The notes beneath the pieces are model-generated. The model was not told where the DNA came from. It saw only the letters and a program-made list of their open reading frames with translations, and did not search any database. The position numbers and the translations under genes were made by a program. A stretch of DNA of 64,000 bases from an uncultured Lachnospiraceae bacterium (GTDB lineage: Bacteria; Bacillota; Clostridia; Christensenellales; UBA1242): assembly GCA_964594865.1 (NCBI GenBank), contig CAZQMZ010000003.1, positions 11,369 through 75,368 on the forward strand, written 5' to 3'. Position 1 is the first letter of the stretch. Every line of letters starts with the position of its first letter. Positions 1 to 22,278 of the stretch are shown here, piece by piece.

Positions 1-23
1 TCTGAATTTTTGCTCAATCAAAG

Positions 24-386
24 TTAAAAAGTGAAGATATAAAGTACAATGATCACAACTGTGGCAACAATCCAGCAAATAAGCCACCAAACATTTCGAC
101 CGTTCCAATTTCCATGGCACTTTCTCATTGCCCAATAGAAACCCAACCAAATGCAGATGATGTATGCCAAGCATTCGCCGATTGATTCAAATGCCTGTGC
201 AACTGTTGGAACATTACTTTTGAACGCCAATTTCAAAATCAGTGCAATAGCAATGAAGATGATGGAGAAATATCCCACGCAATCCATAATTTTTATGGAC
301 GACCAACTTCTCTTTGCTGATTTTGAAGATGAAGATGATTTTGTTGTTGATGTCGACTTTTTCTCTGTTTTCTTTTTCTCAGCCAT
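24..386 (-). CDS. small membrane protein, Lys/Ser-rich N-terminus plus about 3 TM helices, function unknown
   Basis: 120-aa ORF; AAGGAG about 9 nt upstream of ATG; hydrophobic segments FSIIFIAIALILKLAF, LAYIICIWLGFYWA and WWLICWIVATVVIIVLYIF; no family recognised. Confidence 0.5.
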   Translation of the reverse strand: MAEKKKTEKKSTSTTKSSSSSKSAKRSWSSIKIMDCVGYFSIIFIAIALILKLAFKSNVPTVAQAFESIGECLAYIICIWLGFYWAMRKCHGNWNGRNVWWLICWIVATVVIIVLYIFTF

Positions 387-513
387 TTGTTTATACTCCT
401 TTTTTTAGATTTATATTAAAAGCACGATTTTTCGCTCTTTTAACCAAAGTTATTGAAATATTTTTCTCGTATTGCAATATATTCTTATGCATTATTTTTC
501 ACTTGTGACATCA

Positions 514-2097
514 TCACTTCGCTGTTTCAGAATATCTGCTTTCTCTTATGACATTGACCTTGATTTGTCCCGGATATTGCATTTCGTTCTCAATTTTTTG
601 AGCAATTTCCTTTGCCATAAACATTGCTTCGCTGTCCGAAACTTCTTGTGGTTTGACGATAATTCTCACTTCTCTGCCCGCCTGAACAGCGAAAGATTTT
701 TCCACACCCTTGAAGCCATTTGCAATTTCTTCCAACTGTTGAAGGCGTTTGATATAGTTTTCAAACGAATCTCGTCTTGCGCCCGGTCTGGAACTTGAAA
801 TGGCGTCTGCAACCTGCACAATAACCGCTTCAATGGTTTTGAATTCCACATTAAAGTGGTGTGCTTCAATGCAGTGCACAACTGCTTCATTTTCGCCATA
901 TTTACGCGCAAGTTCAACACCAATTTGCACATGAGTGCCTTCAAGTTCGTGGTCAAGCGCCTTGCCTATGTCGTGCAAAAGTCCGCCACGTTTGGCAACT
1001 TTGACATTTGCTCCCATTTCACTTGCCAAAAGCCCAGCAATAATGGAAGTTTCAATGGAATGTTTAAGCACATTTTGTCCATAACTTGTGCGATATTTCA
1101 ACCTACCCAAAGTTTTGACAAGTTCTGGATTGAGGTTGAATATGCCTGTTTCGTTGCAAGCTTCGTCACCTGCTTGCTTGATTGTTTTGTCAACCTCTTT
1201 TTGCATTTTTTCAACAATTTCTTCAATTCGAGTTGGATGAATTCTTCCGTCAGAAATAAGTTTTTCCAACGACAACCTTGCAACTTCACGTCTGATTGGG
1301 TCAAAGCCTGAAACTGTGATTGTTTCCGGTGTGTCATCAACAATCAGTTCCACACCTGTTGCCGCTTCAATGGCGCGAATATTTCGTCCTTCACGCCCAA
1401 TGATTCTTCCTTTCATTTCGTCATTTGGAAGAGCAACCGATGCAACCGTCATTTCAGTTGTAGTTTCGGTGGCACAACGTTGCAAAGCCTGACCTATGAT
1501 CCAACGTGCCTTGTTTTCGCCTTCTTCTCTGGCATCGTCCTCAATTTTCTTGACAATTGTCACGGCTTCTTTTTGAGCGTCATTTCTCATGTTTTCAATC
1601 AACAAATCTTTTGCTTCTTGCTTGGAAAGTTTGGCAGTTTTTTCAAGCTCTTCAAGAATCTTGGCTTTGATTTCTTCCTGTTGAATTTTCAGCTGATTGA
1701 GATTTTCACGAATTGACTGAACTTCCTTTTTTTCTTCGTCAAGTTGTTCAGATTTTTTGTCGACAGCCTGTTCTTTTTTCTCGATGTATTCTTCGCGTTG
1801 ACTCAAACGCTCTTCTTGTTTCAAGACTTCGTTGCGACGCTCTTTAACTTCTTTTTCAACATCGTCTTTCAATTTTTGCGATTGTTCTTTGCTTTCAATA
1901 ATCGCCTCTTTTTTGATTGTCTTTGCCTCTGCATACGCATCTTCAATGATTTTGATGGCATTTGATTTATTTTTTTGCAGTTTTTTACCGCTATAAATTT
2001 TATACACCAAAAGTCCGACAGCAAGTCCAACAATGAAAAGGACAATTGATATAACCGATACGATTGCAGGAGAGACATCAAGTAACAAAAATTTCAT
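514..2097 (-). CDS. rny: ribonuclease Y
   Basis: N-terminal TM helix, long coiled coil, KH motif GRIIGREGRNIRAIEAATG, HD domain LLHDIGKA..HH; AAGGAG SD. Confidence 0.95.
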   Translation of the reverse strand: MKFLLLDVSPAIVSVISIVLFIVGLAVGLLVYKIYSGKKLQKNKSNAIKIIEDAYAEAKTIKKEAIIESKEQSQKLKDDVEKEVKERRNEVLKQEERLSQREEYIEKKEQAVDKKSEQLDEEKKEVQSIRENLNQLKIQQEEIKAKILEELEKTAKLSKQEAKDLLIENMRNDAQKEAVTIVKKIEDDAREEGENKARWIIGQALQRCATETTTEMTVASVALPNDEMKGRIIGREGRNIRAIEAATGVELIVDDTPETITVSGFDPIRREVARLSLEKLISDGRIHPTRIEEIVEKMQKEVDKTIKQAGDEACNETGIFNLNPELVKTLGRLKYRTSYGQNVLKHSIETSIIAGLLASEMGANVKVAKRGGLLHDIGKALDHELEGTHVQIGVELARKYGENEAVVHCIEAHHFNVEFKTIEAVIVQVADAISSSRPGARRDSFENYIKRLQQLEEIANGFKGVEKSFAVQAGREVRIIVKPQEVSDSEAMFMAKEIAQKIENEMQYPGQIKVNVIRESRYSETAK

Positions 2098-2190
2098 AGA
2101 TATATCTCCTTAAATTTTGGTGTTTTTCCTTTCAATCATGGACAAATTGCCCATGTGACGAAAAAACGAAAGGAAACACACTCATGATTA

Positions 2191-2219
2191 AGTTTACCCT
2201 TTTCGTAAAGTTTTGTCAA
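2191..2219 (-). promoter_or_regulatory. sigma-A-type promoter of rny
   Basis: TTGACA (2214-2219), 17 nt, TAAACT (2191-2196); gives a roughly 90-nt structured leader. Confidence 0.55.
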
Positions 2220-2258
2220 ATAAAAAGATAAATATATGAAATATTTTTTAATTTTTTT

Positions 2259-2290
2259 AAAAAAAGAGAGAATTTTGGAAGAATTCTCTC
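2259..2290 (-). terminator. rho-independent terminator after the YgjV-like gene
   Basis: GAGAGAATT-cttccaa-AATTCTCTC plus U-run on the minus strand. Confidence 0.75.
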
Positions 2291-2295
2291 ACAGA

Positions 2296-2886
2296 TCACT
2301 TGATTTCGCTGTGGCAAATTTTCAAAATCTTTTTGATGTCATAGTTGCATTCAATCTTTCTCTTTTCTCTGATTCTCGGCAAAATTTCATATATGATGAT
2401 GGAAACGATAAGCAAGCAGATTGTCACAATACTGCAAGTCATTTTCACATAGCCTTTCACTGTGATGTCATACGAAATCCACAACAACGAATAACAAATC
2501 AACGAACAACGAATGAACAGCATATTTTCGAAAATCAAGCACACAGTTGACACCAACATCACAAAAATCAGCACAATATTTATCGGTCCTTGCCAAAAGA
2601 AAGCCAACACAACCGCAAAGAGAGAATTTATCAAAATAAGAGGAAGAATATAATGTTTTGGACTTTTTTTCTGTTCGTGCAATCGCAGATACCACACTGC
2701 TCGAATCAAAAGCAAGATTTGTGTGATTGCTGGCAAATAGTTTTCAAGAATGAAATAGGACAACGAATAAAAAGCTGGAGCCAAAACCATAAACAACAAA
2801 AGAAGCCTTTTTGTTTTCATCAATTTCCCAGCAAGGTCAATAATCATGCCAATTGCAACAATTATTTGTGAAATAATATACATCAT
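2296..2886 (-). CDS. polytopic inner-membrane protein (possibly YgjV-like)
   Basis: 196 aa, 5-6 hydrophobic helices; weak resemblance to the YgjV family by eye only. Confidence 0.45.
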   Translation of the reverse strand: MMYIISQIIVAIGMIIDLAGKLMKTKRLLLLFMVLAPAFYSLSYFILENYLPAITQILLLIRAVWYLRLHEQKKSPKHYILPLILINSLFAVVLAFFWQGPINIVLIFVMLVSTVCLIFENMLFIRCSLICYSLLWISYDITVKGYVKMTCSIVTICLLIVSIIIYEILPRIREKRKIECNYDIKKILKICHSEIK

Positions 2887-2924
2887 AACAAGAACATTTT
2901 TATCACAAAACAGTCCAACAAGTC

Positions 2925-2954
2925 AAGAAAAAACAGGTTAAAAACCAACCTGTT
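2925..2954 (-). terminator. rho-independent terminator after clpX
   Basis: AACAGGTT-ggttttt-AACCTGTT plus U-run on the minus strand. Confidence 0.7.
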
Positions 2955-2980
2955 TTCATTATTTTAAGTTCGATCAAATC

Positions 2981-4270
2981 TCAAACCGCTTCTTTTTCTT
3001 CCTTACTTTCAGTGTCTCTCTTGAGCAAAATCGGCTCTACACCTTTTTCAATGAAGTCGCGCGTGATGATGATTTTTCCGTATACTTTCGGGTCAGGAAG
3101 ATCAAACATAAGTTCAAGCATTTTGTTTTCCATGATTGTTCGAATTCCGCGTGCCCCTGTTTTGAGATCAATTGCTTGTTTTGAAACATAGGCAATGGCA
3201 TCTTCATCAAACTCCAACTCAAAGCCATCGATGCGGAAGAGTTCTTTATATTGTTTGATAAGTGAATTTTTTGGCTCAACAAGAATTTTTTGAAGCGCCT
3301 TGTCATCCAATTCGTCCAAGCCTGTGACGATTGGAAGTCTGCCCACAAATTCAGGAATTAAGCCAAACTTGATGAGATCGTCTGGCTGAACATCTTTGGC
3401 ATAATTGATTTTCGCCCTTTCATCTTTCGTTTTTATGTTGGCATTGAAACCAATAGATGATGCTGACAGACGCTTGTGAATGATGTCATCCAACCCAACA
3501 AAAGCACCGCCACAGATGAACAAAATGTTGGTTGTGTCGATTTGAAGCATCTCTTGATGCGGATGCTTTCTTCCGCCCTGTGGTGGAACGCTGGCAATCG
3601 TGCTTTCAATAATTTTGAGAAGAGCTTGCTGAACACCCTCTCCACCAACATCACGCGTGAGAGAACGATTTTCGCTCTTACGTGCAATTTTGTCTATTTC
3701 GTCAATATAAATTATTCCGCGTTGAGCTCTTTCGATGTCATAGTCCGCATTTTGAATGAGTTTCAAAAGCACATTTTCAACATCTTCACCAACATAGCCG
3801 GCTTCTGTCAACGTTGTGGCATCAGCGCAAGCAAAAGGGACATCCAAAACTTTGGCAAGAGTTCGCACAAGCAAAGTTTTTCCGGAACCTGTTGGTCCAA
3901 TCATAAGCACATTGCTTTTTTCAAGTTCAAGCAAATTCTTATCATTCTTGTTTTTCTTTGCATTGATTTTGTTGTGATAGTTATAATTTATCCTTTTATA
4001 ATGGTTGAACACAGCAACAGAAAGCACCTTTTTTGCCTGCTCTTGCCCAATAACATAATTATCCAGCGCCTTTTTGATGTCTTTTGGCGATGGAATGACA
4101 AGGTCTTTGAAGACTTTAACCTTCAAGCTCTCTTCTTTGATTATGTCAGCACAAACTCGCACACAGTCGTCACAAATGAAAGAGTCACCATTTGGGCTTG
4201 CAATCAATTTTTTCGCTGCCTTTTGTGGACGTCCACAAAAAGAACAAGAACACATTTCAATATCTTTCAT
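2981..4270 (-). CDS. clpX: ATP-dependent Clp protease ATP-binding subunit ClpX
   Basis: N-terminal zinc ribbon [12 protein letters not shown]; Walker A GPTGSGKT; Walker [10 protein letters not shown]; IPEFVGRLP motif. Confidence 0.97.
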
Positions 4271-6381: not shown

Positions 6382-6419
6382 TTGATTTTTTGCGAATAGT
6401 TTGATATAATTCAAGTATG
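6382..6419 (+). promoter_or_regulatory. promoter abutting the recombinase start codon (leaderless candidate)
   Basis: TTGATT (6382-6387), 17 nt, TGaTATAAT (6402-6410), 6 nt, ATG (6417); no SD. Confidence 0.6.
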
Positions 6420-7460
6420 AAAAATTTGTCATACTATGAAAAACGCGATTTGAAAAATATGCAAAAAATCGGAAATTATCTCTCCACACTTCCAGATTTT
6501 TGCTATGATTTCTTCACAGGAATTGAAAATAACACATCTTCACTGACAAGGCTCAACTATGCCATGGATTTGTGCATTTTCTTTGATTATTTGGAAAAGT
6601 TTGTTTTAAAGAAGCCAAAAATGCAAATCACTTTGGAAGATTTGGACGGCCTGCAGGCACGCAATATTGAAAACTATCTTTCTTATCTCTCTTATTATGA
6701 CAACAACGGAAAATTGGTCAGAAACACCGAACGCGGAAAGGCAAGAAAATTGGCAAGTGTTCGAAGTTTTTTCAAATATTATTTTGATCATGATATGCTC
6801 AAAAGCAACGTGGCAAGCAAAATCAAAACGCCAAAACTTCACAGCAAGGAAATCATACGCCTTGAAAAAGATGAAGTCAATCGAATGCTTGACGCTGTTT
6901 CCTCGCCGACAAGTTTCACCGAAAGACAAAAACACTATAACAAAAACACGCAAGAGCGTGACAATGCCATTGTCACATTGTTTTTAGGAACAGGAATTCG
7001 TATTTCCGAACTTGTCGGACTGAATGTTGAGGACTTTGATTTCTCTCAAGACGCTTTCAAAGTGACCCGAAAAGGCGGAAATCAAGCCATCCTATACTTT
7101 CCACTGGAAGTCAAACAAGCCTTGCAAAAGTGGCTGGAAAAAAGAAAGACCCTTCCACTTGATGAAAACGAGCATGCCATGTTTGTATCGTTGCAAAACA
7201 AGCGAATTTGCACGCGAGCAGTTGAAAATCTTGTCAAGAAATTTGCCAAAGAAGGAAGCCCACTCAAAAAGATTTCTCCCCACAAATTGCGCTCCACATT
7301 TGGCACAAATCTATATCGCGAAACAAAAGACATATACATCGTCGCCGATGTGTTGGGACACAAAGACGTCAACACCACCAAGCGCCACTATGCTGCAATA
7401 AGCGAAGATATGCGCAAAGCGGTTGCTGAAAAAGTGAAAATCATTCGCAAAACAGATTAA
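6417..7460 (+). CDS. tyrosine recombinase, XerC/XerD-like
   Basis: C-terminal catalytic region ..GTGIRISEL..HKLRSTFGT..LGHKDVNTTKRHY (R..HxxR..H..Y); N-terminal SAM-like core-binding domain. Confidence 0.85.
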   Translation: MKNLSYYEKRDLKNMQKIGNYLSTLPDFCYDFFTGIENNTSSLTRLNYAMDLCIFFDYLEKFVLKKPKMQITLEDLDGLQARNIENYLSYLSYYDNNGKLVRNTERGKARKLASVRSFFKYYFDHDMLKSNVASKIKTPKLHSKEIIRLEKDEVNRMLDAVSSPTSFTERQKHYNKNTQERDNAIVTLFLGTGIRISELVGLNVEDFDFSQDAFKVTRKGGNQAILYFPLEVKQALQKWLEKRKTLPLDENEHAMFVSLQNKRICTRAVENLVKKFAKEGSPLKKISPHKLRSTFGTNLYRETKDIYIVADVLGHKDVNTTKRHYAAISEDMRKAVAEKVKIIRKTD

Positions 7461-7464
7461 ATAA

Positions 7465-7512
7465 ATATGGTGTAGTATGCATTGCGTAATACACCATATT
7501 TTGTGTTATGCA
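7465..7512. repeat. TGCATAAYACAC-type palindromic element, locus A (3 half-sites)
   Basis: ATATGGTGTAGTATGCA-T-TGCGTAATACACCATAT, then TTTGTGTTATGCA; lies between the convergent recombinase and spoIVB genes; the spoIVB stop codon (7506-7508) is inside it. Confidence 0.85.
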
Positions 7513-8681
7513 ATCATCCAATCGACATAAACTCCATATCCTTTTGTTGGATCATTCAAGAAAACATGAGTCACCGCGCCAATGATTTTTCCATCTTGCA
7601 TGATTGGAGAACCGCTCATCCCTTGCACAATCCCGCCGGTCAATTCCAAAAGTCGTTTGTCCTTAACTCGAAAAACGATGCTTTTGTCATCTGCGGATTT
7701 TTGATAACTCGTCTTGATGATTTCAATATCATATTCTTCTCTGATTCCGCTTATTGTGGAAACAATTTTGGCATCTCCCATTTTCACGCTCAATCTTCCA
7801 CCCAACTTTGCCGTGACATTTTCGTCAACAAGCCCAGTGACATCGCTTAAAACACCACTTATTCCAAATTTGCTGTTGCTCTCAATCTCACCCTTACTTT
7901 TCGAACTTGAAAGGAAGACACATTTCAACTGCCCCGGATCATTTTTCTTTCCTTTCTCAATCCCAATCAAATTGCAACCATAGACATTGCCATTTTCGAC
8001 AGGAATAATGTTTCCACTACTTGCTTCTGTGATTGGATGTCCAAGCGCACCAAATTCCAATGTTTGTTTATTGACAAAAGTCAAAGTCCCCACGCCTGTT
8101 ATGTCGTCTTTCACCCACAATCCAAGTTTCAAATTTCCGCTTTCATCATAGGTTGTTTTGAGAATGGTTTTGAAAGTCTTGTTCTTGCGCAAAAATTCCA
8201 CTTCTGTTTCGTCTGAATTTTCTTCCAAAAGACTTTGGACGTCCTCCCAATCCTCCACTTCGTTGCCGTTTATTCGAATGATAATGTCGCCTTCTTTCAG
8301 TGTTCCGCTTTCATCACTGACAACAATCGCACCGTCGGTGTTTATGGCAAGCCCAATTGGCACACCGCCGACATAATATTCTTCATCGCCGGAAAGAACA
8401 ACAGCCACGCGTTTGATTGGAATCAAGCCAAACAATTTAAAGACAATTTCGTTTTGTTTTGCCTTTTGCCCGTCGACAACATTTTCTTTTTCCACAAGTT
8501 GTGAGGTGATAAAACTGCCAAATTTATGCGTCTGATTGACATTTTCCACATCCGAATAATCTGCCAAAAATCCCCCTTCCAAAGAATAGAGATCTCGAAG
8601 CGGAAGAACTATGGAAAAACTGAACAGAAAGACAAAAAAGAATACAACCAAACAAAGACAACTTTTGTAATTTTTTCTCAT
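7506..8681 (-). CDS. spoIVB: SpoIVB peptidase (S55), sporulation signalling protease
   Basis: signal/TM segment, PDZ segment (GDIIIRINGNEV), catalytic GALGHPI and GMSGSPI motifs. Confidence 0.9.
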   Translation of the reverse strand: MRKNYKSCLCLVVFFFVFLFSFSIVLPLRDLYSLEGGFLADYSDVENVNQTHKFGSFITSQLVEKENVVDGQKAKQNEIVFKLFGLIPIKRVAVVLSGDEEYYVGGVPIGLAINTDGAIVVSDESGTLKEGDIIIRINGNEVEDWEDVQSLLEENSDETEVEFLRKNKTFKTILKTTYDESGNLKLGLWVKDDITGVGTLTFVNKQTLEFGALGHPITEASSGNIIPVENGNVYGCNLIGIEKGKKNDPGQLKCVFLSSSKSKGEIESNSKFGISGVLSDVTGLVDENVTAKLGGRLSVKMGDAKIVSTISGIREEYDIEIIKTSYQKSADDKSIVFRVKDKRLLELTGGIVQGMSGSPIMQDGKIIGAVTHVFLNDPTKGYGVYVDWMIA

Positions 8682-8696
8682 ACACCTTAGTTTCTG

Positions 8697-8717
8697 TAAT
8701 TTTGGTTATATTATGCA
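8697..8717. repeat. single half-site copy, locus H
   Basis: TAATTTTGGTTATATTATGCA; 16 nt upstream of the spoIVB ATG and 3' of the DUF45 gene. Confidence 0.5.
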
Positions 8718-8792
8718 AATTCAAACTGTCAAAGCAAAAATTAAAGAAGAGATAACAATTCCTTTCTTTTTTTTCTATGATTGCTCCTTCAA

Positions 8793-9428
8793 TCAAATTC
8801 TCTTGTCATTTTTCAAAAGAAAGCCATATTTTTGCAGTTCTTTGCGATAGGCTTTATAGTTTGGACAAATCTTTTTCACGTCCGCCCAAAACTTTGGTTT
8901 GTGGTTCATATGCAAACTGTGACAAAGCTCATGTGCAACGACATATTCCGCCAAATGCTGTGGCAAAATGAGAAGTTTCCAATTCAATTTCATCACTCCG
9001 CCCGAGTTGTAACTTCCCCAAATTCTAGTGGAACTTGTCGGCTTGATTTCGTTGAACTTCAAACCTGTATGTGCTGAGATTTGATTTGCAATGTCAACCA
9101 ACTTGTCAAAATGAGAAAGATAGAATTTTTCAATTGTTTTTCTTTTTTTGGTTTGTGGTTGCTTGTCAAAATCCAAGGAAAGTTCATCGACAGACACAAA
9201 CTGCTTGCCGTCAAGATAGATAAACTTATCCAAATCAAAACTCATAGAAAATTGTTTGTTTGCCGAAATTTTTTCCGCTATTTTGTTCAACCAATTCTTT
9301 TTGTTTTCAATAAATTTTATAATCTTTTCATCACTCAAATTCTTTGGTGCCTTCAAAATTGCCCTGTCATCACTCACAACTTTCAACACCATAGTTTTTC
9401 TTTTCTCTTTGATTATTTCAACTTCCAT
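8793..9428 (-). CDS. YgjP/DUF45-family metal-dependent hydrolase
   Basis: C-terminal HELCHSLHMNHKPKFW (HExxH) with layout typical of DUF45. Confidence 0.75.
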   Translation of the reverse strand: MEVEIIKEKRKTMVLKVVSDDRAILKAPKNLSDEKIIKFIENKKNWLNKIAEKISANKQFSMSFDLDKFIYLDGKQFVSVDELSLDFDKQPQTKKRKTIEKFYLSHFDKLVDIANQISAHTGLKFNEIKPTSSTRIWGSYNSGGVMKLNWKLLILPQHLAEYVVAHELCHSLHMNHKPKFWADVKKICPNYKAYRKELQKYGFLLKNDKRI

Positions 9429-9462
9429 ACGCCTATTATATCACAAAGAAAAGAAGTTTCAA
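9426..9462 (-). promoter_or_regulatory. promoter abutting the DUF45 start codon (leaderless candidate)
   Basis: minus strand: TTGAAA (9457-9462), 16 nt, TGaTATAAT (9435-9443), 6 nt, ATG (9426-9428); no SD. Confidence 0.6.
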
Positions 9463-9490
9463 AATGTTTATAAACATTTTCAATTTTCAT

Positions 9491-9600
9491 GTGATATTTG
9501 CATAACACCACAATATGTTGTATAAAACTTTGCATATCACACGTCATATTGTTGTGATATGCAATTTAAAAAAAGTTTGCATAACACCTTAATTTTGTTT
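9491..9600. repeat. palindromic element, locus B (5-6 half-sites)
   Basis: GTGATATTTGCATAACACCAC; TGCATATCACA-N11-TGTGATATGCA (9531-9563); TGCATAACACC (9578-9588); ends at the -35 of the PadR-gene promoter. Confidence 0.85.
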
Positions 9601-9628
9601 GACAAATGTTTTAAATATGTTATATCAT
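9599..9628 (+). promoter_or_regulatory. sigma-A-type promoter of the PadR-membrane gene
   Basis: TTGACA (9599-9604), 16-17 nt, TGtTATATCAT region (9619-9628); SD-led. Confidence 0.5.
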
Positions 9629-9647
9629 AAAATAAATTGGAGGGTCT

Positions 9648-11264
9648 ATGGCATATAATGCAAACAAAGAAACTCAATATCTCATTCTTGACAGTCTTTC
9701 ACATGGTGCAAAATATGGGCTTGAAGTGATTGAATATATCTCTCAAAAAACAAACGGTGCATACATCTTAAAGAAACCGACACTATATTCCTGCCTGTCC
9801 CGTATGGAGAAAAAGGGTCTTATTTCTTCTTCCTATTGGGGAGAAAGCGACCTTGGCGGAAAAAGACATTATTTCAACGTAACAAATTCTGGAAAACAGC
9901 TTTTGGAAGAACTTTCAAAGGAATATGCCAACAGCACCTTCACAAGTGTTATGGAAGAAGTTGAACCAAAGACAGAAAACACGTCAAGCACTCCACTTTT
10001 CCTTCAACAAGACAACATTTTTGATATGGTCAAAGAAGAAAAAACAGCAACGACGGTCAAAGAAAGCAAACAAGAAGACCAAACTTTAAACAATCAAATT
10101 GACTTCTTCTCATTTCAAAAACAAAAAGATGAAGAAACTCGCGAAGAACCTACTGTTGAAAAGAACGAAGAGAAGATGCAATATTATCAATCAATTTTGG
10201 AACAAACTCCTCAAAACAACGCAAGATTTTTGGATGAAAGCGAAAGGCTCAGTTTTGCGCAAGAAGAACAGAACAAGCGCCTTTATGACACTTCGAGCGA
10301 ACTGAAAAAATACCGCAAACGCAAAAGTTTTTCCGAAAATCAAATTGAAATGTCTGTTGTGTATGAAAATGAAGAAGATCAAGCAATTCAACGTCAACGC
10401 ATAGAACAACTGAAAGCGTCAATGTTGGGTGCCCGTCAAAACCGCATTGAAGAAACAGAAAGATTTGATGAACTTCCAAAATATTACGAAGATCCAAAAG
10501 AAGAAGTTGTTGACGAACCTCAAGCCGACGATGGCGTCTTCATCAACACCCGCGTCAGAGAAGTTCCAATTCAAAAGAAGATTACCCCTCCAAACATTGA
10601 TGTTGAAATTGACGAAGACAAACTTCCTGCTCCAAAGCGAAACAGCAATCTTGAACCGACCTACAAAGATATGCTTTCCAAACTTTTTGAGAAGAAAAAG
10701 GAAGACAAGATCATCAAAGATGCTCCGCCACAGCCTCAAATCATGCAAGAAGAAGTTGACAGTTTTGTTGACTACAACTCTTTGAAGAGATATTATAAGA
10801 CCCATGACATCGAGTTTAAGGAATATTCCAAAACAAACATACAAAGAGAGCACAACACTAACTTTTTGAATTTCATAACCTCTGTCATTCTGCTCTGCTT
10901 GTCTGGAATTTCTTCTGCAATTTTGTTTGCCATAATCAGTTTCACCGAAAAATTGAATGTCAGCACAAATTGGCTGTTTTACACAATTCCGCTTTTGTTT
11001 CTTGTTTATTGCATCTTCGCCTTCATTCGCAACAAAGTGAGTATAAGTAAAAAAGCCACTCTGCTCTATAACGGATTTGTAAGTTGGGCAATCTTCATCC
11101 TTGGCGTCATTGTCGTGATTGTGATCAACGTCATCGCCGGAATGCAGTTTGAAACAATGGGAGATTATCTCACTTCAACACTCACCCCAACTTTGGCACT
11201 TTTGATTGCTTTCCCAATAAATCACTATGTCAAAAAATTCTTGTATAGCAGATATTCAAAATAA
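9648..11264 (+). CDS. PadR-family winged-helix domain fused to an acidic linker and a C-terminal 4-TM domain
   Basis: N-terminus LILDSLSHGAKYGLEVIEYI..GAYILKKPTLYSCLSRMEKKGLISS matches PadR; about 300 aa E/K/Q-rich linker; 4 hydrophobic helices at the C-terminus; GGAGGG SD. Confidence 0.75.
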   Translation: MAYNANKETQYLILDSLSHGAKYGLEVIEYISQKTNGAYILKKPTLYSCLSRMEKKGLISSSYWGESDLGGKRHYFNVTNSGKQLLEELSKEYANSTFTSVMEEVEPKTENTSSTPLFLQQDNIFDMVKEEKTATTVKESKQEDQTLNNQIDFFSFQKQKDEETREEPTVEKNEEKMQYYQSILEQTPQNNARFLDESERLSFAQEEQNKRLYDTSSELKKYRKRKSFSENQIEMSVVYENEEDQAIQRQRIEQLKASMLGARQNRIEETERFDELPKYYEDPKEEVVDEPQADDGVFINTRVREVPIQKKITPPNIDVEIDEDKLPAPKRNSNLEPTYKDMLSKLFEKKKEDKIIKDAPPQPQIMQEEVDSFVDYNSLKRYYKTHDIEFKEYSKTNIQREHNTNFLNFITSVILLCLSGISSAILFAIISFTEKLNVSTNWLFYTIPLLFLVYCIFAFIRNKVSISKKATLLYNGFVSWAIFILGVIVVIVINVIAGMQFETMGDYLTSTLTPTLALLIAFPINHYVKKFLYSRYSK

Positions 11265-11356
11265 TAAAAAAATTTTAAAAATTTTTGCATAAGATTCAAA
11301 AATGTGTGCACAATAGAAATAAGTTAAGTCGTAAAAACAACTTAACTTAAAAACGA

Positions 11357-11412
11357 AAAGAGATGAATTGGTTCGTGAGGAACAAATAACACATCTCTTT
11401 TCTTTTTTTTAT
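11357..11412 (+). terminator. terminator after the PadR-membrane gene (possibly bidirectional)
   Basis: AAAAGAGATG..25-nt loop..CATCTCTTTT followed by a T-run; a separate 9-bp hairpin lies at 11321-11348. Confidence 0.55.
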
Positions 11413-11418
11413 TCAATT

Positions 11419-12033
11419 TCATAAACACTTGATTTCGATTTCTTTTTTGCGACTTCTGATCTTTCCAATCAGCCAAACAACCAAATTCATCAGCACAAAA
11501 ATTCCAATCAAAATCAAAGAGAACATAAAGATGAAAAAGGCAGAGTTTTCAAACAACAAGCATATGGCGATGACAACACTACAAGAGAGCGCTTCTCCAA
11601 TTAAAATTGACAAAAACCCTTGCCAAATTTTGAGATTTGTCATCCCAGCAATCAAACTCCCCGTCCACACGCCCGTAAGCGGAAGTGGCACGGCAACAAA
11701 GGTGGAAAGCATCATGCATTTTTTGAATGTGGTGTTTTTTGCCTTTAATTTTTGAATTTGTTTTTCATAGCGCTTCATAAACTTCTCGCAAACAAAACCA
11801 CTCGTCCGATTTTTCACCCATCGCGAAAAAAGAATAATCAAAATGGAAGGCAACATACCCCCAAGCAAAGCCACAAAAAACGCAGTGATTGGCGACAAAA
11901 TTCCTTCACCCCAAATGGCAGTGGAAAGTGCAAAAGGAATGGCCACTCGACTTTCAAGCATTGGAATCATTGCCATAATAAGCACTGCCAAAATCACACA
12001 ATTTGAAAAATTGTCTGCAAAAAAGTCTGTCAT
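11419..12033 (-). CDS. small multidrug-export-like membrane protein (COG2426 / Sm_multidrug_ex-like)
   Basis: MIPMLESRVAIPFAL motif and 5 TM helices; family call by eye. Confidence 0.55.
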   Translation of the reverse strand: MTDFFADNFSNCVILAVLIMAMIPMLESRVAIPFALSTAIWGEGILSPITAFFVALLGGMLPSILIILFSRWVKNRTSGFVCEKFMKRYEKQIQKLKAKNTTFKKCMMLSTFVAVPLPLTGVWTGSLIAGMTNLKIWQGFLSILIGEALSCSVVIAICLLFENSAFFIFMFSLILIGIFVLMNLVVWLIGKIRSRKKEIEIKCL

Positions 12034-12062
12034 ATCAACCTCTCTAAAAAATTTTTAAGGAT

Positions 12063-12100
12063 AAAAAAATCAACCCTTCACAATAATATATGAAAGGTTG
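12063..12100 (-). terminator. rho-independent terminator after recN
   Basis: CAACCTTTCA/TGAAGGGTTG stem (1 mismatch) plus U7 on the minus strand. Confidence 0.7.
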
Positions 12101-12121
12101 GTTTGAAATATTATATATTTT

Positions 12122-13780
12122 TTAGTTATGTAAAAATAACTTCTTTGCGTGTTCCAACGCAGTTTGTGAGATTTCGTTTCCATCGTCAATCAATCGTGCC
12201 ACTTCAAAAACCGCCTGATTTTTGTCAAGTGATGCCACCGTGGAGATTGTGGAAGAATTGACAACATCCTTTTTGACAAGCAAAAACTCATCCGCTTTGG
12301 ACGCCACAACAGCTGTGTGCGTGATGCAAATGATTTGTGTGTATTTTGATATATTCACCAGCTTTTCGGCAACTTTTCCCGCCGTTTGACCGCTCACACC
12401 GGCATCAATTTCATCAAAGATGACTGTTTGCACAAAGTCTTTTTCCAACATAACATTCTTGAACGCCAAAAGCAGTCGCGAAAGTTCTCCGCCGGATGCC
12501 GTCTTATGCAAATCTCGAATCTCTTGCCCAACATTTGCCGAAAACATAAATTTCACAACGTCGAACCCTTTGCGTGTGAACTCTCCCCTTTCAAAATCAA
12601 CTTTGAAATTTGTGCCCACCATTTGCAAATCTTCAAGTTCGTGACAAAGGCGGTCTTCAAAAACTTTTGCAAATTTCTTTCGCAATTCACTCAATTTTGT
12701 GCATGCATTTTCAAGTTGTTGTTGGATGACAACCTGCTCTTTTTGCAGTTTTTCCAAAGTTTCTTGACTGTTTTCCAACTCTTCCAATTTTTGTTGGCAT
12801 TTTTCTTGATAGTCCAAAATGTCTTCGATTGTCTTTCCATATTTCTTTGACAGTTTCTTTATAAGATCCAAACGTTCATCAATTCGCTCCAATTCCTTTG
12901 GGTCAAATTCAGTGTTTTGCTTGACTCCATCCAGAACTTCTGCCACATCCTTGATTTCATAATAACAATCTTCAATGCGTTGTCGACATTCTTCAATCTC
13001 TTTAAAGTTTGAAAGCGCCGAAAGACAATTTTTGACTTCATACAAAAGCCCTGTCACATTTTCACGATCTTCATCGAGTTTGCCCACTGCCAAACCAACA
13101 CTCTCAAAAATCTTTTCGGAAGACGAGATAAATTCAAACCTTTCGCGCAGTTCTTCCGCCTCACCAAGTTGCAAATGAGCATTTTCAATTTCGTCAATTT
13201 GATATTCCAAAAGTTCTTTTTCGCGCAGACGTTCACTTTCACTTCCGCCAAGAGCAGAAATCTTTCTCTTGACATCTTGAAGGTCGTCATAAAGTCGTTC
13301 AACCTCACCTTTCAAATTTTCCACATCAGCGCCGGCAAATTTATCCAAAAGCAAAAGGTGATTTTTGACATTCAAAAGACCAACGCTATCATGTTGCCCA
13401 CAAAAGTCCGCCAACTTTTCAGAAAGTGTTTGCAACATTTTTGCGGTTGCCGGAAAGCCATTCACTTTGACAGAAGACTTTCCTTCCTGAGAGAGTGTGC
13501 GCGAGATGACAAGCTCATCCTCGACATCAATTTCCCATTCACGCAAAACATCTTTCTCGCTTTCAGACAATTCCACAAACACCCCATCAACCCTGAGAGA
13601 AGCTTCGCCAGAGCGAATCAAATTCTTATCCGCCTTGGCACCCAACAAAAAACTTAAAGCATCAATGATGATGCTCTTGCCCGCACCCGATTGACCCAAA
13701 AGACAATTGAAGCCATTCTTAAATTCTATTGTTTGTTTTTTGATTAAAGCAACATTTGTCAAAGTTAAAGATGAAAGCAT
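12122..13780 (-). CDS. recN: DNA repair protein RecN
   Basis: Walker A GQSGAGKS, long coiled coil, C-terminal ASGGELSRLLLA and IFDEIDAGVSG; start set at MLSSLTL (GAGGAA SD); downstream of argR as in Bacillus. Confidence 0.93.
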   Translation of the reverse strand: MLSSLTLTNVALIKKQTIEFKNGFNCLLGQSGAGKSIIIDALSFLLGAKADKNLIRSGEASLRVDGVFVELSESEKDVLREWEIDVEDELVISRTLSQEGKSSVKVNGFPATAKMLQTLSEKLADFCGQHDSVGLLNVKNHLLLLDKFAGADVENLKGEVERLYDDLQDVKRKISALGGSESERLREKELLEYQIDEIENAHLQLGEAEELRERFEFISSSEKIFESVGLAVGKLDEDRENVTGLLYEVKNCLSALSNFKEIEECRQRIEDCYYEIKDVAEVLDGVKQNTEFDPKELERIDERLDLIKKLSKKYGKTIEDILDYQEKCQQKLEELENSQETLEKLQKEQVVIQQQLENACTKLSELRKKFAKVFEDRLCHELEDLQMVGTNFKVDFERGEFTRKGFDVVKFMFSANVGQEIRDLHKTASGGELSRLLLAFKNVMLEKDFVQTVIFDEIDAGVSGQTAGKVAEKLVNISKYTQIICITHTAVVASKADEFLLVKKDVVNSSTISTVASLDKNQAVFEVARLIDDGNEISQTALEHAKKLFLHN

Positions 13781-13851
13781 TTTCGTTCCTCTATTTTGAT
13801 TATAACACAACATCATAAATTTTTCAAACTAAATTGAACAAAAGTGAAGAT

Positions 13852-13886
13852 AAAAAAAGTTGATTTCATTCTTAAACGAAATCAAC
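13852..13886 (-). terminator. rho-independent terminator (or attenuator) between argR and recN
   Basis: GTTGATTTC-N10-GAAATCAAC plus U7 on the minus strand. Confidence 0.7.
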
Positions 13887-13924
13887 TAAATTAAAGCAAT
13901 GGTCCTATCCAATAAGCCAACTAA

Positions 13925-14377
13925 TCACATCATCATCTGTTGTAGAGTGGAAACAGACTCGCTGGCAAAAGTTGTGGTTGGAAAAATCAACATCACTGTG
14001 TCGTCGCCATAAGTTGCACCCATAAGTTCTGATAAATTGAGTTTGTCGATGAAAGAGCAAACGCCAGAGCCCATACCTTTGATTGTCCTGATCACCACCA
14101 AGTTGAGAGCACTCTTCACAGAGATGACGCTTTCTTTGAAGATGTTTATGTATTTGTTGGACACGACTTGCTGTTCAGAACCCAAAATGGCATATTTATA
14201 TTTTCCCGAACTGCCTTGAATTTTTGTCAAACCCAACTCTTTGATATCACGAGAAATTGTCGCTTGAGTGATATCAAAGTTGGCGTTTTTCAATTCACGA
14301 GCCAATTCTTCTTGTGTTTCAATCTCTTTTGTGGAGATAAGTTCCAAAATTTTTGATTGTCTTGAACTTCTTGCCAT
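13925..14377 (-). CDS. argR: arginine repressor
   Basis: R(Q)SKILELI..ETQEEL..L....FDITQATISRDIKEL wHTH; C-terminal GTIAGDDT-like GATYGDDTVM. Confidence 0.92.
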   Translation of the reverse strand: MARSSRQSKILELISTKEIETQEELARELKNANFDITQATISRDIKELGLTKIQGSSGKYKYAILGSEQQVVSNKYINIFKESVISVKSALNLVVIRTIKGMGSGVCSFIDKLNLSELMGATYGDDTVMLIFPTTTFASESVSTLQQMMM

Positions 14378-14430
14378 TTTTGCGCTCCTTAACGGCTACA
14401 CTGCCCTAAATTACGGCGATGTAGCGATTT

Positions 14431-14527
14431 TTGCATAAATATAAATTTATGATTATTCATGCAATTTTGATAATTATACAATAAAATTTATAAAAATGCA
14501 AGCGATTTTTGCATATTTATTCATGAA
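14431..14527 (-). promoter_or_regulatory. cluster of ARG-box-like operators in the argR promoter region
   Basis: reverse complement of 14509-14525 is CATGAATAAATATGCAA, against the B. subtilis AhrC box CATGAATAAAAATTCAAG. ATTTATAAAAATGCAAG at 14486-14502. TTGCATGAATAATCAT (rc of 14449-14464). TTGCATAAATATAAAT at 14431-14446. Confidence 0.65.
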
Positions 14528-14700
14528 TTTTTTATAAAAATATACATTTCTGTAAATTTATAAATTCGAAATTAATAAATTTACACTTTTATGCATACTC
14601 TCATTTATCCCAAAACCAGAATAAGCAAATCTACCTTACTTCTCAAAGAATATCAGTCGCCCAAAAACTTTTCAAGACTTTGTGTCAAAATTTTTGCAAC

Positions 14701-14731
14701 AAAAAAAATCTATCAAAAATTTTGACAGATT
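14701..14731 (-). terminator. rho-independent terminator after thiI
   Basis: ATCTGTCAAAA/TTTTGATAGAT imperfect stem plus U8 on the minus strand. Confidence 0.55.
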
Positions 14732-14751
14732 TTTAAATTCACTTTCAAAAA

Positions 14752-15915
14752 TCAATAGCAATCAATCTCAACAATCTCATCATTCTCAACCGCCTTGTTG
14801 ACAAGATTGTCTATATCAAGATTTTGTTCCAAAAACTCCGCGCGTTTGATGGTTGGTCGGATCACAGGATTTTTTGGAAGAAACACAGTGCAACAATCTT
14901 CATAAGGCAAAATTGAAGTTTCATAAGTTCCAATCTTATTTGCCACTTTCATGATCTCTTCCTTGTCAAATGCAATAAGTGGTCGAAAGACAGGAAGGTT
15001 GACAACCGAATTTGTCACATTCATACTTTGCATAGTTTGGCTCGCCACCTGCCCTAAACTTTCACCTGTGACAATCGCACCAAGGTCATTTTGCAAACAA
15101 AGTTTTTCAGCAATTCGCATCATAATTCGTCGCATGATTGTGATCATATATTCGGCGTCACAACTTTTGTGAATCTGCTCTTGAATTTCAGTGAACGATA
15201 TCACATGAAGTTTGATTTTTCCGCAATATGTTGAAATCTCTTTGGCAAGTTGAATAACTTTCTCTTTTGCTTGAACACTTGTGTATGGATATGAATGAAA
15301 ATGCACAGCTTCAAATTTAAGTCCGCGCTTGGACATCAAAAAGCCAGCCACAGGACTGTCAATTCCGCCAGACAAAAGCAAAAGCCCTTTTCCAGCACTT
15401 CCAAGAGGCAACCCACCAGCGCAAGAAAACAACCTGTCATATATATATGTCTTGCCATTATTTCGCACTTCCACAAACACAACAACTTCCGGATGATATA
15501 AATCAACCTTTAAGGACGGATATTTGCGCAGAATTACATCACCAAGATGAGCACTTAATTCCATTGACGACATCGCAAATCTCTTGTCCGCGCGTTTTGT
15601 TTCCACCTTAAAAGTTTTGTAAGAAGAAAAATCAAGGCTCGAAGCATACTGTTCGATATTTTCCAAAGTTGTGTCCAACTCCACAGCATCGGCAATTGCA
15701 ATCAAACCAAACACCTGTTGCAATTTAGCAATGATTTCATCCTCAAGATTGACGTCATAGTCAGAAACAACCAAGCGACCTTGAGTTTCGTGCAAAGCAA
15801 AATTGAACTGACGAAGTTTTTGTCGAATATTTGACATCAAAAGAGAGATAAACTCATGTCGATTTTTACCCTTTAAAAACAATTCTCCAAATTTCAGCAA
15901 CAAAACTTTTTTCAT
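14752..15915 (-). CDS. thiI: tRNA 4-thiouridine(8) synthase ThiI
   Basis: THUMP N-terminal region, PP-loop LLLSGGIDSPVA. Confidence 0.92.
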   Translation of the reverse strand: MKKVLLLKFGELFLKGKNRHEFISLLMSNIRQKLRQFNFALHETQGRLVVSDYDVNLEDEIIAKLQQVFGLIAIADAVELDTTLENIEQYASSLDFSSYKTFKVETKRADKRFAMSSMELSAHLGDVILRKYPSLKVDLYHPEVVVFVEVRNNGKTYIYDRLFSCAGGLPLGSAGKGLLLLSGGIDSPVAGFLMSKRGLKFEAVHFHSYPYTSVQAKEKVIQLAKEISTYCGKIKLHVISFTEIQEQIHKSCDAEYMITIMRRIMMRIAEKLCLQNDLGAIVTGESLGQVASQTMQSMNVTNSVVNLPVFRPLIAFDKEEIMKVANKIGTYETSILPYEDCCTVFLPKNPVIRPTIKRAEFLEQNLDIDNLVNKAVENDEIVEIDCY

Positions 15916-15935
15916 AACCTTTCCTTATATATCTG

Positions 15936-17063
15936 TCAAGACACTCTTTTCTTTATGTCGAGATAGACTTTTGAAATAATTTGCCCCGCTTTTGCCACTT
16001 CTTCATCGGTCATATAAGCATTGAAGCTTATGCGCGCACTTGAAATGATTTCATCTTTTGAAAGTCCAATACACTCCAAAACGCGATTGCCAGCTTTCTT
16101 TGCCGAACACGCACTTCCAAGCCCAATGATCACCCCTTCTTGATTGAGAGCGTGAAGCATAGTTTCGCCTTTTACACCAGAAAATATGATATTCTCAATA
16201 TATGGCGACCCACCATTTTCGCCAAAATCACGAACAATCAACCCCGGTGCATTGAGATTTTCATTGAAAATTTTCTTCAACTTCAAAACTCTTTCAAAAT
16301 TTGCTTTTTCATCAATCAACTCAACCGCTTTTTTGAGTTGCATAATTCCAGAAACATTTTCCGTGCCCGAACGAAGCGAGTATTGCTGTCCACCGCCTTC
16401 AAAGAGTGTTTTCAAGTTGTTTTTGTTTTTGACATAAAGTCCCGCAATTCCCTTTGGCGCGTGAATTTTGTGACCACTGAAAGAATATAGATCCACCGCA
16501 GTTTGTTTGAGAGAAAGTGTAATTTTCATAAACCCTTGCACTCCGTCAACATGAAAAATTGCGTTTGGACAGATTTTGTTTTTAATGTCAGAGATTTTTT
16601 TCAAATCGTTGATTGCGCCGGTTTCGTTATTGACATGCATGACACTTATCAATCTTGTTCTTGCAGACAGAACACTTTCAAGTTTTTGATAATCCACACA
16701 GCCATTTGCCATCAGCGGAACAAAATGAACAATAACTCCGTCTTGTTGCAACTTTTTGGCCACATTATAGACCGACGGATGTTCACCGTCCGCAAAAACA
16801 TATTCCCACTTTCCCGTTCTCAAGGATCCTTTGATTGCAAGGTTATTGCTTTCGGTGGCACAACTTGTGAAAAGGATGTTTCCTTCGCTCGCACCCAACT
16901 TTTTCAAAAAAAGTCTTTCTGCATCAGCAACAAGTTTTGAAACTTCCAAAGACTGCATTGACAAAGCAGAAGGATTATAAAAATTCTCGCATGAAAAATG
17001 CTTGTGGACGTCCACACATTCTTCAAACATACAGGTCGTTCCGGCATTGTCGAGATAGATCAT
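15936..17063 (-). CDS. cysteine desulfurase (NifS/NifZ/IscS class)
   Basis: PLP-lysine motif SFSGHKIHAPKGIAGLYV and active-site region GSACSA; adjacent to thiI as NifZ-ThiI is in Bacillus. Confidence 0.9.
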   Translation of the reverse strand: MIYLDNAGTTCMFEECVDVHKHFSCENFYNPSALSMQSLEVSKLVADAERLFLKKLGASEGNILFTSCATESNNLAIKGSLRTGKWEYVFADGEHPSVYNVAKKLQQDGVIVHFVPLMANGCVDYQKLESVLSARTRLISVMHVNNETGAINDLKKISDIKNKICPNAIFHVDGVQGFMKITLSLKQTAVDLYSFSGHKIHAPKGIAGLYVKNKNNLKTLFEGGGQQYSLRSGTENVSGIMQLKKAVELIDEKANFERVLKLKKIFNENLNAPGLIVRDFGENGGSPYIENIIFSGVKGETMLHALNQEGVIIGLGSACSAKKAGNRVLECIGLSKDEIISSARISFNAYMTDEEVAKAGQIISKVYLDIKKRVS

Positions 17064-17083
17064 AAAAACTCCTTACAAAAGCT

Positions 17084-17156
17084 TGCGTAACATCCCAAAA
17101 CATTGCATATCACACCAAATCTTGTTGTATTATGCATATAGCACCACAAAATGTTG
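17084..17156. repeat. palindromic element, locus C (4 half-sites)
   Basis: TGCGTAACATCC..; TGCATATCACACC-N-GTTGTATTATGCA (17104-17136); TGCATATAGCACCAC; lies between the pheT stop and the desulfurase start. Confidence 0.85.
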
Positions 17157-17191
17157 AATTTTATCAACAATTTCTCATTAAACAAAACCCA

Positions 17192-19603: not shown

Positions 19604-19636
19604 ATCTTTTCTCCCTTTTTCAAGTTCAATCCACTT

Positions 19637-19700
19637 TGCGTAATACCGCAATATATGGTGTATTATGTTGCATACCACACATTATTTTGTGTATTATACA
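19637..19700. repeat. palindromic element, locus D (4 half-sites)
   Basis: TGCGTAATACCGC..ATATGGTGTATTATG; TGCATACCACAC-ATTATTTT-GTGTATTATACA (19669-19700); lies between the pheS stop and the pheT SD. Confidence 0.85.
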
Positions 19701-19710
19701 ACCATTTCAA

Positions 19711-20730: not shown

Positions 20731-20782
20731 GATTTTGTCACCTTTTTTAGATAAATTTTTCTTTGTTCACCTGTATGCTAAC

Positions 20783-22091: not shown

Positions 22092-22132
22092 TAACAAAAA
22101 TTTAAAAATTCTTTTTCTTTTTCATTTATATT

Positions 22133-22154
22133 AACTGTCGAAAATTGTTATAAT
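22133..22154 (+). promoter_or_regulatory. promoter copy 1 with embedded Spo0A box upstream of the Rho-like gene
   Basis: AACTGTCGAAAATTGTTATAAT: 0A-box TGTCGAA (22136-22142) 6 nt upstream of the extended -10 TGTTATAAT. Confidence 0.5.
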
Positions 22155-22236: not shown

Positions 22237-22278
22237 AGTTCTGGTTTTAAGAAATTTTACAAAATAAGGAGTCTTTTT

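Follow-up and report, generated by a model that had tools for sequence, protein, structure and literature searches.

The subject of this analysis is a family of short palindromic elements scattered between the genes of a 64,000 nucleotide stretch of contig CAZQMZ010000003.1 (assembly GCA_964594865.1), hereafter called the window, from an uncultured Lachnospiraceae bacterium. The repeat family is real and is undescribed as far as the libraries searched show. Judged from sequence, its members are putative double-stranded DNA operators of a membrane-anchored PadR-family protein encoded within the window at 9648-11264, and a probability of roughly 0.6 is given to this reading. A preliminary description of the window had likened the elements to repetitive extragenic palindromes (REP) and bacterial interspersed mosaic elements (BIME). 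The modular, inverted, intergenic structure and the placement 3' of genes behind that likeness are borne out below but a high-copy mobile repeat of the RAYT type is not.

Occurrence of the repeat family

Allowing at most one mismatch, the half-site TGCATAHYACAC was found 16 times in the window against 1.34 matches expected, and 100 dinucleotide shuffles gave a maximum of 5. A half-site weight matrix built without the window, from related loci in other genomes, gave 18 window sites at a threshold of at least 9 bits and 0-4 in shuffles. Seventeen of these 18 fall inside the intergenic loci of the preliminary description, in which the half-site was correctly recognised as repeated and the coordinates and sequences were all correct.

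The family is not confined to the window. A single exact-pattern search of 185,579 species genomes, a collection from which the species of the window is absent and in which its closest relative has ∼85% DNA identity, returned 112 loci (L001-L112). About 93 of them came from 49 assemblies of uncultured gut Clostridia, labelled Candidatus Caccovivens, ‘Catabacter’, ‘Lachnospiraceae’ or ‘Clostridia bacterium’; the remaining loci, GC-rich or with an odd spacer, were treated as chance matches. In the 0.86 Mb of related DNA made up of the window and these 112 loci, 277 half-sites were found in 128 kb of intergenic DNA against 70 in 730 kb of called open reading frames (ORFs), a density ∼22-fold higher between genes, and 2 of 109 multi-site clusters were inside ORFs. 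The alternately oriented half-sites are therefore an intergenic feature, as had been proposed. The clusters occupied 63 co-directional, 20 divergent and 19 convergent contexts, similar to the background intergenic mix of 275, 103 and 83. Strict copies number 3 in the 64 kb of the window against 1-4 per whole species assembly in the 49 assemblies; the sites are suggested to be regionally clustered around the window, beside the regulator gene, with ∼8 of ∼30 known junctions here.

The earlier failure to recognise a named family was repeated with databases. Rfam held no match for the repeat, the window giving only RNase P RNA (39521-39876) and one tRNA at gathering score, and a 55-nt locus A query had no match in plasmid or phage collections. 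A scan of viral contigs for the repeat gave one match, probably due to chance.

Architecture of half-sites and arrays

Alignment of 238 half-sites gave T-G-C-A-T-A-[A>C>T]-[T>C]-A-C-A-C-[A/C/T]-A-T-A-T. The half-site is ∼17 nt, TGCATA-[A/C/T]-[T/C]-ACAC-HATAT; the 12-13 nt assigned to it previously described a real motif but stopped short of HATAT. Two half-sites placed head-to-head make a 12+8+12 palindrome of 32-34 bp with a centre of 8 nt in 75 cases, 9 nt in 24, 7 nt in 6 and 10 nt in 6. This arrangement had also been seen before, as a pair across an AT-rich spacer, but the 8-nt centre NATATATN is more than a spacer, being conserved and itself symmetric. Half-sites also pair tail-to-tail, TGCA abutting TGCA, and the arrays are chains in which the two dyads alternate with a period of ∼32-33 bp, as measured from direct-repeat offsets. 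The tail-to-tail spacers are bimodal, with 68 cases at -1 to 3 nt, 11 cases from at least 6 junctions at 9 to 12 nt and one case at 4-8 nt. The two modes differ by one helical turn. This jump passes over the loop sizes preferred by hairpins and so argues for proteins bound on one face of duplex DNA.

Compensatory changes between the arms, a check put forward in the preliminary description, were looked for in the aligned units and none were found. The same base was present in both arms in 42% of cases at position 7 (37% expected) and 58% at position 8 (56% expected), and the same dinucleotide in 28% (23% expected). Position 7 is mismatched between the arms in most units. The half-sites have evolved independently of each other, and the lack of covariation, taken with a conserved palindromic 8-nt ‘loop’, indicates protein recognition of duplex half-sites and not of a hairpin. 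On the sense strand at co-directional junctions 50 of 56 units can pair at position 8, with 18 U.G and 6 C.A combinations; GC skew would produce an excess of U.G over C.A in this direction and of this size, and the sites are non-independent.

The elements are nevertheless imperfect palindromes with hairpin potential, clustered in alternating orientation, as REP and BIME sequences are. Seven stretches of the arrays were folded as transcripts. Six gave stable structures of -15 to -25 kcal/mol (z -3.4 to -6), and the seventh, from the pheT–iscS array (-17.3 kcal/mol, z = -0.7), was indistinguishable from shuffles. As the preliminary description had concluded, they are not canonical intrinsic terminators: none of 12 terminator-like sites in 7000-21000 coincided with an element, and the stems are AT-rich and lack a U-tract. 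Neither a target-site duplication nor a GTAG-type end was found at the elements, and the window ORFs scanned included no RAYT/IS200 gene. Cognate RAYT genes encode a Y1/HUH transposase and typically have REP sequences on either side.

Linkage to the promoter of a PadR-like gene

In the PadR-like protein a winged-helix domain (residues ∼11-95) is joined by a charged ∼300-aa linker to four transmembrane helices at the C-terminus. The largest array, here called the home array, sits between two divergent promoters, that of the padR-like gene and that of a ygjP-like gene. A distance of 10 nt separates the end of its last half-site from the padR-like -35 element downstream, and on the other side a promoter-like site for ygjP-like, TTGAAA-16-TATAAT, is found on the minus strand at 9462-9435. 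An array of the same architecture was present upstream of padR-like in all eight species of the strict set that have the gene. It was also present in three of three loci picked via the PadR-like protein alone with the motif ignored (L234-L236), each with two units and a promoter-proximal half-site. In L235, where ygjP is absent, the array remains at padR-like. PadR-family operators are located likewise, in the promoter of padR itself or of a neighbouring target gene.

Close homologues of the protein numbered 239 at E ≤1e-10, and the 120 listed of these 239 are all at least 45% identical. Their clade appears to be that of the element, the few source names being Clostridia or Caccovivens. A search of 1.8 billion cluster representatives gave full-length homologues down to 27% identity, and the combination of PadR winged-helix, long linker and membrane anchor was found in 627 cluster representatives at E ≤1e-10. 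The winged-helix domain is nearly invariant across 22 homologues, and homologues of as little as 25% identity keep K42, P44, Y47, S48, L50, R52, E54, G70, R73 and Y75 of the recognition helix and wing unchanged.

Five loci encoding distant homologues of 25-36% protein identity (L237-L241) were then compared. TGCATA[AC][TC]A was found within 160 nt upstream of the gene in five of five, with 9 matches in the 800 nt of upstream DNA against 6 in 31.9 kb elsewhere (Poisson P ∼1e-13). The upstream motif is TGCATAMTA without the ACAC...GTGT box, and was not found in the other intergenic regions of these loci; the upstream neighbour genes differ between them. Typically a half-site precedes a -35-like hexamer and/or a tail-to-tail pair with a 0-1 nt spacer is present. 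In L238-L241 the half-site is followed after 6-22 nt by TTGACA or TTGACT, repeating the geometry of the window. Given that the motif is linked to the padR-like promoter even in distant lineages without dispersed copies, a REP-like nature is disfavoured and an operator is favoured.

Operators of the PadR family are inverted repeats with a spacer of ∼8-10 nt (PMC3506622), and the PadR-family regulator AphA recognises ATATGCA-N6-TGCATAT (PMC3440409). Inverted repeats are present here as ACAC-N8/9-GTGT and TATGCA-N0-1-TGCATA; the TGCATA core is as in AphA and the bases and spacing otherwise differ.

Some further observations concern this gene neighbourhood. The divergent ygjP-like/padR-like pairing also occurs in L234, L236, L237 and L240, and the YgjP-like metallopeptidase and PadR-like protein may form a protease-regulator pair, the pairing being kept even at 25-36% identity. 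In L240 microvirus-like genes (Phage_F capsid and REP_ORF2-G2P replication protein, 1-3246) adjoin ygjP/padR-like and may represent an integrated microvirus. Between padR-like and a convergent Sm_multidrug_ex gene, a hairpin at 11320-11349, AAGTTAAG...CTTAACTT then AAAACGAAAAGAG, is also present in L234-L236, where the protein is only ∼50% identical; it is unusually well conserved and is probably a bidirectional terminator.

Conservation at orthologous gene junctions

Clustering of the flanking proteins showed that the elements fall at ∼12-15 recurrent orthologous junctions, with a rarer tail, in ∼49 species (Table 1). The flanking proteins are 45-80% identical and the coding DNA is ∼72-80% identical between species, and at that divergence the elements stay near consensus. 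Neutral intergenic DNA would be expected to be randomised, thus purifying selection in place is indicated and not a freely mobile repeat. The window has 8-9 loci, at junctions that also carry the element in relatives, and every good locus has an orthologue there. Turnover of positions between related genomes, as known for REP sequences, was limited to occasional differences in presence: at clpP–clpX an element is found in L052 and none in the window, and at pheT–iscS it is missing in L234.

At co-directional junctions the element lies a median of 11 nt past the upstream stop codon against 53 nt from the next called start, and in 45 of 63 cases the stop is the nearer of the two, in agreement with the earlier remark that elements are often directly 3' of genes. 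At the junction of fabG with the rho-like gene the element is always 1-2 nt from the stop, and its distance to the downstream promoter varies from ∼57 to 85 nt. At yunB a sigma-E-like promoter lies 50-130 nt from the element. The spoIVB stop codon (7506) is inside half-site 7501-7512 of locus A, as had been noted.

The rho-like 391-aa protein (22279-23454) was considered as the binder and rejected; the element, often upstream of its gene, hugs the fabG stop and not the promoter of the rho-like gene. The gene itself has no Pfam family and only weak similarity to Rho (E 0.1-0.5). Upstream of it is a tandem 82-nt duplication (22096-22259), each copy with AACTGTCGAAAAnTGTTATAAT, a Spo0A-box-like TGTCGAA beside an extended -10, and TGTCGAAATGTGATATAAT is conserved upstream of its orthologues.

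Features of the window

The window loci are collected in Table 1. Loci A and G, which the preliminary description had found alike, are 84% complementary over 45 nt (7463-7507 with 57708-57752), as are 19636-19693 and 39434-39491 over 58 nt. The degenerate member it had listed at 53286-53309 is a decayed copy of a full unit seen at the orthologous site. Two of its other assignments did not survive. The single half-site at 8697-8717 has 2 mismatches, and both this site and the supposed relic at 11286-11310 are below the matrix threshold and are not conserved in relatives (L234-L236 for 8697-8717), so that neither is probably a member of the family. As a separate observation, TTGCATAATATAA at 8697-8717, upstream of spoIVB, may be the GCATA-type -35 of a forespore (sigma-F/G-like) promoter.

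Table 1. Elements and genes of the window, and conserved junctions with the number of loci at which each carries an element (counts include the window's own copy where present).
Feature	Position	Strand	Half-sites or match	Context	Orthologous elements or loci
Locus A	7465-7512		<><: 7470-7481(-), 7483-7494(+), 7501-7512(-)	between convergent xerS-like and spoIVB	at spoIVB 3' end: L074, L234, L235
YgjP-like metallopeptidase gene	8793-9428	-	Pfam YgjP-like, E = 2.5e-39		
Home array (largest)	9487-9600		9499(+), 9531(+), 9552(-), 9578(+), degenerate flanks		
Promoter-like site of padR-like gene	9599-9628	+	TTGACA-18-TATCAT, 11/12 matches		
PadR-like gene	9648-11264	+	Pfam PadR, E = 1.6e-13		
pheT–iscS array	17084-17156		17104(+), 17125(-), 17133(+), degenerate 17085		tail-to-tail pairs, spacers 0-1 or 9-11 nt: L021, L027, L036, L057, L067, L089, L108, L134, L235
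pheS–pheT two-unit array	19637-19700		19637(+), 19658(-), 19669(+), 19689(-)		12 loci including window, plus L234, L235
rnpB array	39412-39490		39447(-), 39479(-), degenerate 39413, 39459	between rnpB terminator and unannotated 427-aa gene	L044; at start of 427-aa gene homologues: L023, L059, L111
ftsY 3' pair	43067-43111		tail-to-tail 43083(-), 43095(+)	7 nt past ftsY stop	L048, L062, L069, L070, L077
Decayed copy	53286-53309		one good half-site	between convergent genes	full unit in L015
Locus G	57716-57770		<><: 57721(-), 57734(+), 57755(-)	between convergent genes	L093, L025
Junction pheS–pheT					12 loci
Junction pheT–iscS					6 loci
Junction spoVAE–yunB					9-11 loci
Junction fabG-like–rho-like gene					6-8 loci
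Junction trmD–rbgA					8 loci
Junction ygjP<>padR-like					8 loci
Junction rihC<>spoIIAA					7 loci
Junction ftsY 3' end					6 loci
Junction xerS/spoIVB					4-5 loci
Junction obg–yhbY					2-3 loci
Junctions ruvA–ruvB–queA–tgt and lepA–hemN					single loci (L079, L080, L090)

The 427-aa ORF beside the rnpB array (38133-39416) has no Pfam or NCBIfam match, and its homologues have the element on their 5' side in four other species with differing gene contexts. Elsewhere in the window an AT-rich intergenic region at 31834-32014, between 31077-31736(+) and 32005-33204(-), has T-tracts phased at ∼11 nt (repeat family D1) and looks like intrinsically curved DNA.

A metagenome scan for tail-to-tail pairs (L113-L232) gave six family members among the matches listed, all at known junctions, the rest being mostly unrelated palindromes from termite gut. 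The latter, mostly from Ga01233xx/Ga0131853 termite-gut-type samples, are two abundant palindromic families unrelated to the present one. Their common core is GTGTGGTATGCA...TGCATACCACAC or GTGTGATATGCA-N8-TGCATATCACAC; one family is a long hairpin (tctggtatatgtcactgtatgtaggtgacc...) resembling a miniature inverted-repeat transposable element, and in the other AAAGTTTG...CCCAAAGTTTTCTAGCA then follows.

Several other identities were tried for the repeat and rejected. A sigma-70 promoter within the unit (TTGCAT-18-TATTAT) would have its critical -10 A replaced by G in ∼32% of half-sites, more often on the sense side. For forespore or mother-cell sigma promoters (GCATA, CATA) the spacing of 32-33 nt between half-sites of the same orientation is unsuitable, and a terminator scan did not call the elements as intrinsic terminators. 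Judged by their general consensus, DnaA boxes, ARG boxes, Rex, CIRCE, parS and dif differ from the repeat in sequence or spacing.

DISCUSSION

We infer that the PadR-like protein is the binder, and likewise the effects that its binding would have. The ∼17-bp half-site would be the recognition unit, and half-sites would pair about two alternating dyads, the tail-to-tail one being found in distant lineages also and the head-to-head one lying across an 8-9-bp AT centre. A period of ∼32-33 bp would place bound dimers on one helix face where they could cooperate. The home array, upstream of both -35 elements, would provide autoregulation of padR-like and regulation of the divergent ygjP-like gene. 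On the most economical view TGCATAMTA... would be the cognate autoregulatory operator of the membrane-anchored PadR family. In the Caccovivens-like clade this operator would have gained the ACAC-N8-GTGT extension and then been copied to other junctions, its copies spreading to roughly 15-30 intergenic junctions in this clade of uncultured gut Clostridia. The spread copies would have been kept by selection, usually a few bases past the upstream stop codon.

At the dispersed sites the bound protein might separate neighbouring transcription units as a conditional roadblock or insulator, or might serve as a membrane tether, and these functions are put forward with low confidence. The placement at stop codons and the convergent cases fit poorly with promoter occlusion and favour a roadblock or insulator, or a tether. 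With tethering, a specific chromosomal neighbourhood would be tied to the membrane, namely the region of the gene for the protein with its many housekeeping and sporulation genes. In its specific form, with membrane docking points on a ∼300-aa tether and/or bidirectional roadblock terminators or insulators after stop codons, this proposal is tentative and on balance doubtful.

A number of observations weigh against the elements being operators of the PadR-like protein. The spacing of the half-sites is unlike both the AphA box (N6) and ATGT-N8-ACAT. Approximately 19% of the arrays lie between convergent genes, and co-directional arrays hug the upstream stop codon, unlike classical operators and like REP- or terminator-like elements. 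Many units found by the head-to-head pattern are solitary, and the central 16-mer fits an NrdR box equally well. Point mutation cannot produce a 32-bp palindrome repeatedly, and its spread must therefore have involved a copy mechanism of some kind; no transposase and no target duplication were found that could account for this, and the viral contigs gave no more than the probable chance match mentioned above. In addition, orthologous sites are non-independent and the P values therefore overstate significance.

Two rivals are live but weaker. One is that the elements are selfish palindromes of the REP/BIME or REPIN kind, spread by a transposase-like enzyme and forming 3'-end hairpins, with the copy in the padR-like promoter being coincidental; the hairpins, in DNA or RNA, would serve mRNA stabilisation or weak termination. 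We consider this unlikely, even though it would account for elements that are strictly intergenic, modular, alternating in orientation, next to stop codons and distributed over convergent, divergent and tandem contexts as the background is. The stable folding of most transcribed arrays, the need for a copy mechanism for dispersal and the differences in presence at some junctions are also in its favour. REP sequences run to tens to hundreds per genome and the 1-4 strict copies found are too few, and orthologous positions and a sequence near consensus have persisted through deep divergence. Compensatory changes are lacking with position 7 mismatched in most units, hairpin-favourable loops of 4-8 nt are avoided in the tail-to-tail pairs, and the elements have no GTAG-type end, target-site duplication, U-tract or GC-rich stem, nor a RAYT/IS200 gene among the window ORFs scanned. 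A further, very unlikely idea is that an RNA-binding protein or RNase recognises the elements as RNA hairpins of specific sequence, which would mark processing or stability sites at cistron junctions. The junctions in conserved housekeeping clusters (pheS–pheT, trmD–rbgA, obg–yhbY, ruvB–queA–tgt) and the pairable position 8 in 50 of 56 units suit it; the asymmetry at that position, however, is of the size expected from GC skew at non-independent sites, ∼20% of arrays occupy divergent promoter regions, both strands carry the palindrome, and the helical phasing of the spacers and the linkage to the padR-like promoter are left unexplained.

The other live rival is that each head-to-head unit is a box for NrdR, or an NrdR-like protein, in a regulon widened beyond ribonucleotide reductase, with the NrdR tetramer, which senses dATP and ATP, bound to adjacent boxes separated by 3 or 4 helical turns. 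An NrdR box has six highly conserved positions, C4, A6, A8, T9, T11 and G13 (PMC13584703), and all six are present in the central ACAC-H-ATATAT-D-GTGT, which is near-identical to boxes that bind at 40-170 nM such as ACACAATATATAGTGG and CCCCTATATATAGTGT. Depending on the scan, C and G are 8 nt apart in 74-75 cases and 9 nt apart in 23-24, the ‘half’ units at pheS–pheT and pheT–iscS still keep C4...G13, and the linkers between boxes of 15-19 or 25-28 bp parallel the published classes of 15-16 and 26-27 bp (PMC13584703). This reading is nonetheless improbable. No ribonucleotide reductase gene was found among ∼100 start-facing neighbours. NrdR needs two boxes, and for only ∼35% of full units was a second one found at ±31-34 bp. 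The linker or flank TGCATAAT is the most conserved part, whereas natural NrdR linkers are not conserved, and the distant padR-like upstream regions keep TGCATAMTA without the ACAC...GTGT box. NrdR is moreover near-universal and the repeat family clade-restricted, and tblastn of the 0.86 Mb of related DNA with NrdR queries, a weak test, gave no nrdR gene. Finally, recombination sites for the adjacent Xer-type tyrosine recombinase (6417-7460) would explain the lox/FRT-like 12-13 + 8 + 12-13 geometry, the element adjoining the xerS-like gene in five contexts and the frequent coincidence of elements with synteny breakpoints. We regard them as extremely unlikely. Recombination among dozens of conserved palindromes with symmetric centres would scramble the chromosome and, in place of a unique site linked to recombinase or terminus, the sites are multi-copy. 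The element is kept at the spoIVB 3' end with the recombinase gene elsewhere (L235), is missing beside the recombinase in L236, and the window has no GC-skew switch.

If the elements are operators of the PadR-like protein, an uncharacterised and widespread architecture of PadR domain, linker and membrane anchor gets its DNA motif, and a regulator's operator has been copied to a couple of dozen junctions and then held there for a long time in evolution. It would be a concrete case of REP-like intergenic palindromes being protein-binding sites, and would open a way to study how genes are regulated, or how chromosome and membrane are organised, in organisms not yet grown. A tether or roadblock, if true, would be a protein-based equivalent of what REP sequences or terminators do, derived from an expanded operator. 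The coincidence with the NrdR box warns against the prediction of regulons from motifs.

Comparison with known systems

The elements are like proteobacterial REP/BIME and REPIN sequences in being extragenic alternating palindromes, often just 3' of genes and also inside operons. They are unlike them in a copy number roughly ten- to a hundred-fold lower, in positions conserved between species, and in the lack of arm covariation, of a GTAG end and of a RAYT among the window ORFs scanned. With NrdR boxes they share the six conserved positions, the C-G distance of 8 or 9 nt and pairs ∼3 or ∼4 turns apart, but they are not at ribonucleotide reductase genes, many are single, the linker is conserved, and the family is restricted to a clade and linked with a PadR-like gene. 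CIRCE, the HrcA operator, is likewise a conserved inverted repeat with a spacer of ∼9 nt and few copies per genome that can act as a DNA and an RNA element; its sequence differs, and it is found only in heat-shock promoters without arrays or 3'-end placement.

The operators of PadR and AphA are like the present elements in being inverted repeats, as bound by a winged-helix dimer. The TGCATA core is that of the AphA box of Vibrio, the head-to-head spacer of 8-9 bp is that of PadR operators (ATGT-N8-10-ACAT), and the site in the regulator's own promoter implies autoregulation as in PadR systems. The differences are a longer half-site (∼17 bp), a tail-to-tail spacing of 0-1 or ∼10 nt in place of the 6 nt of the AphA box, a regulator of 540-650 aa that is membrane-anchored, and sites that are dispersed to conserved junctions, mostly at the 3' ends of genes.

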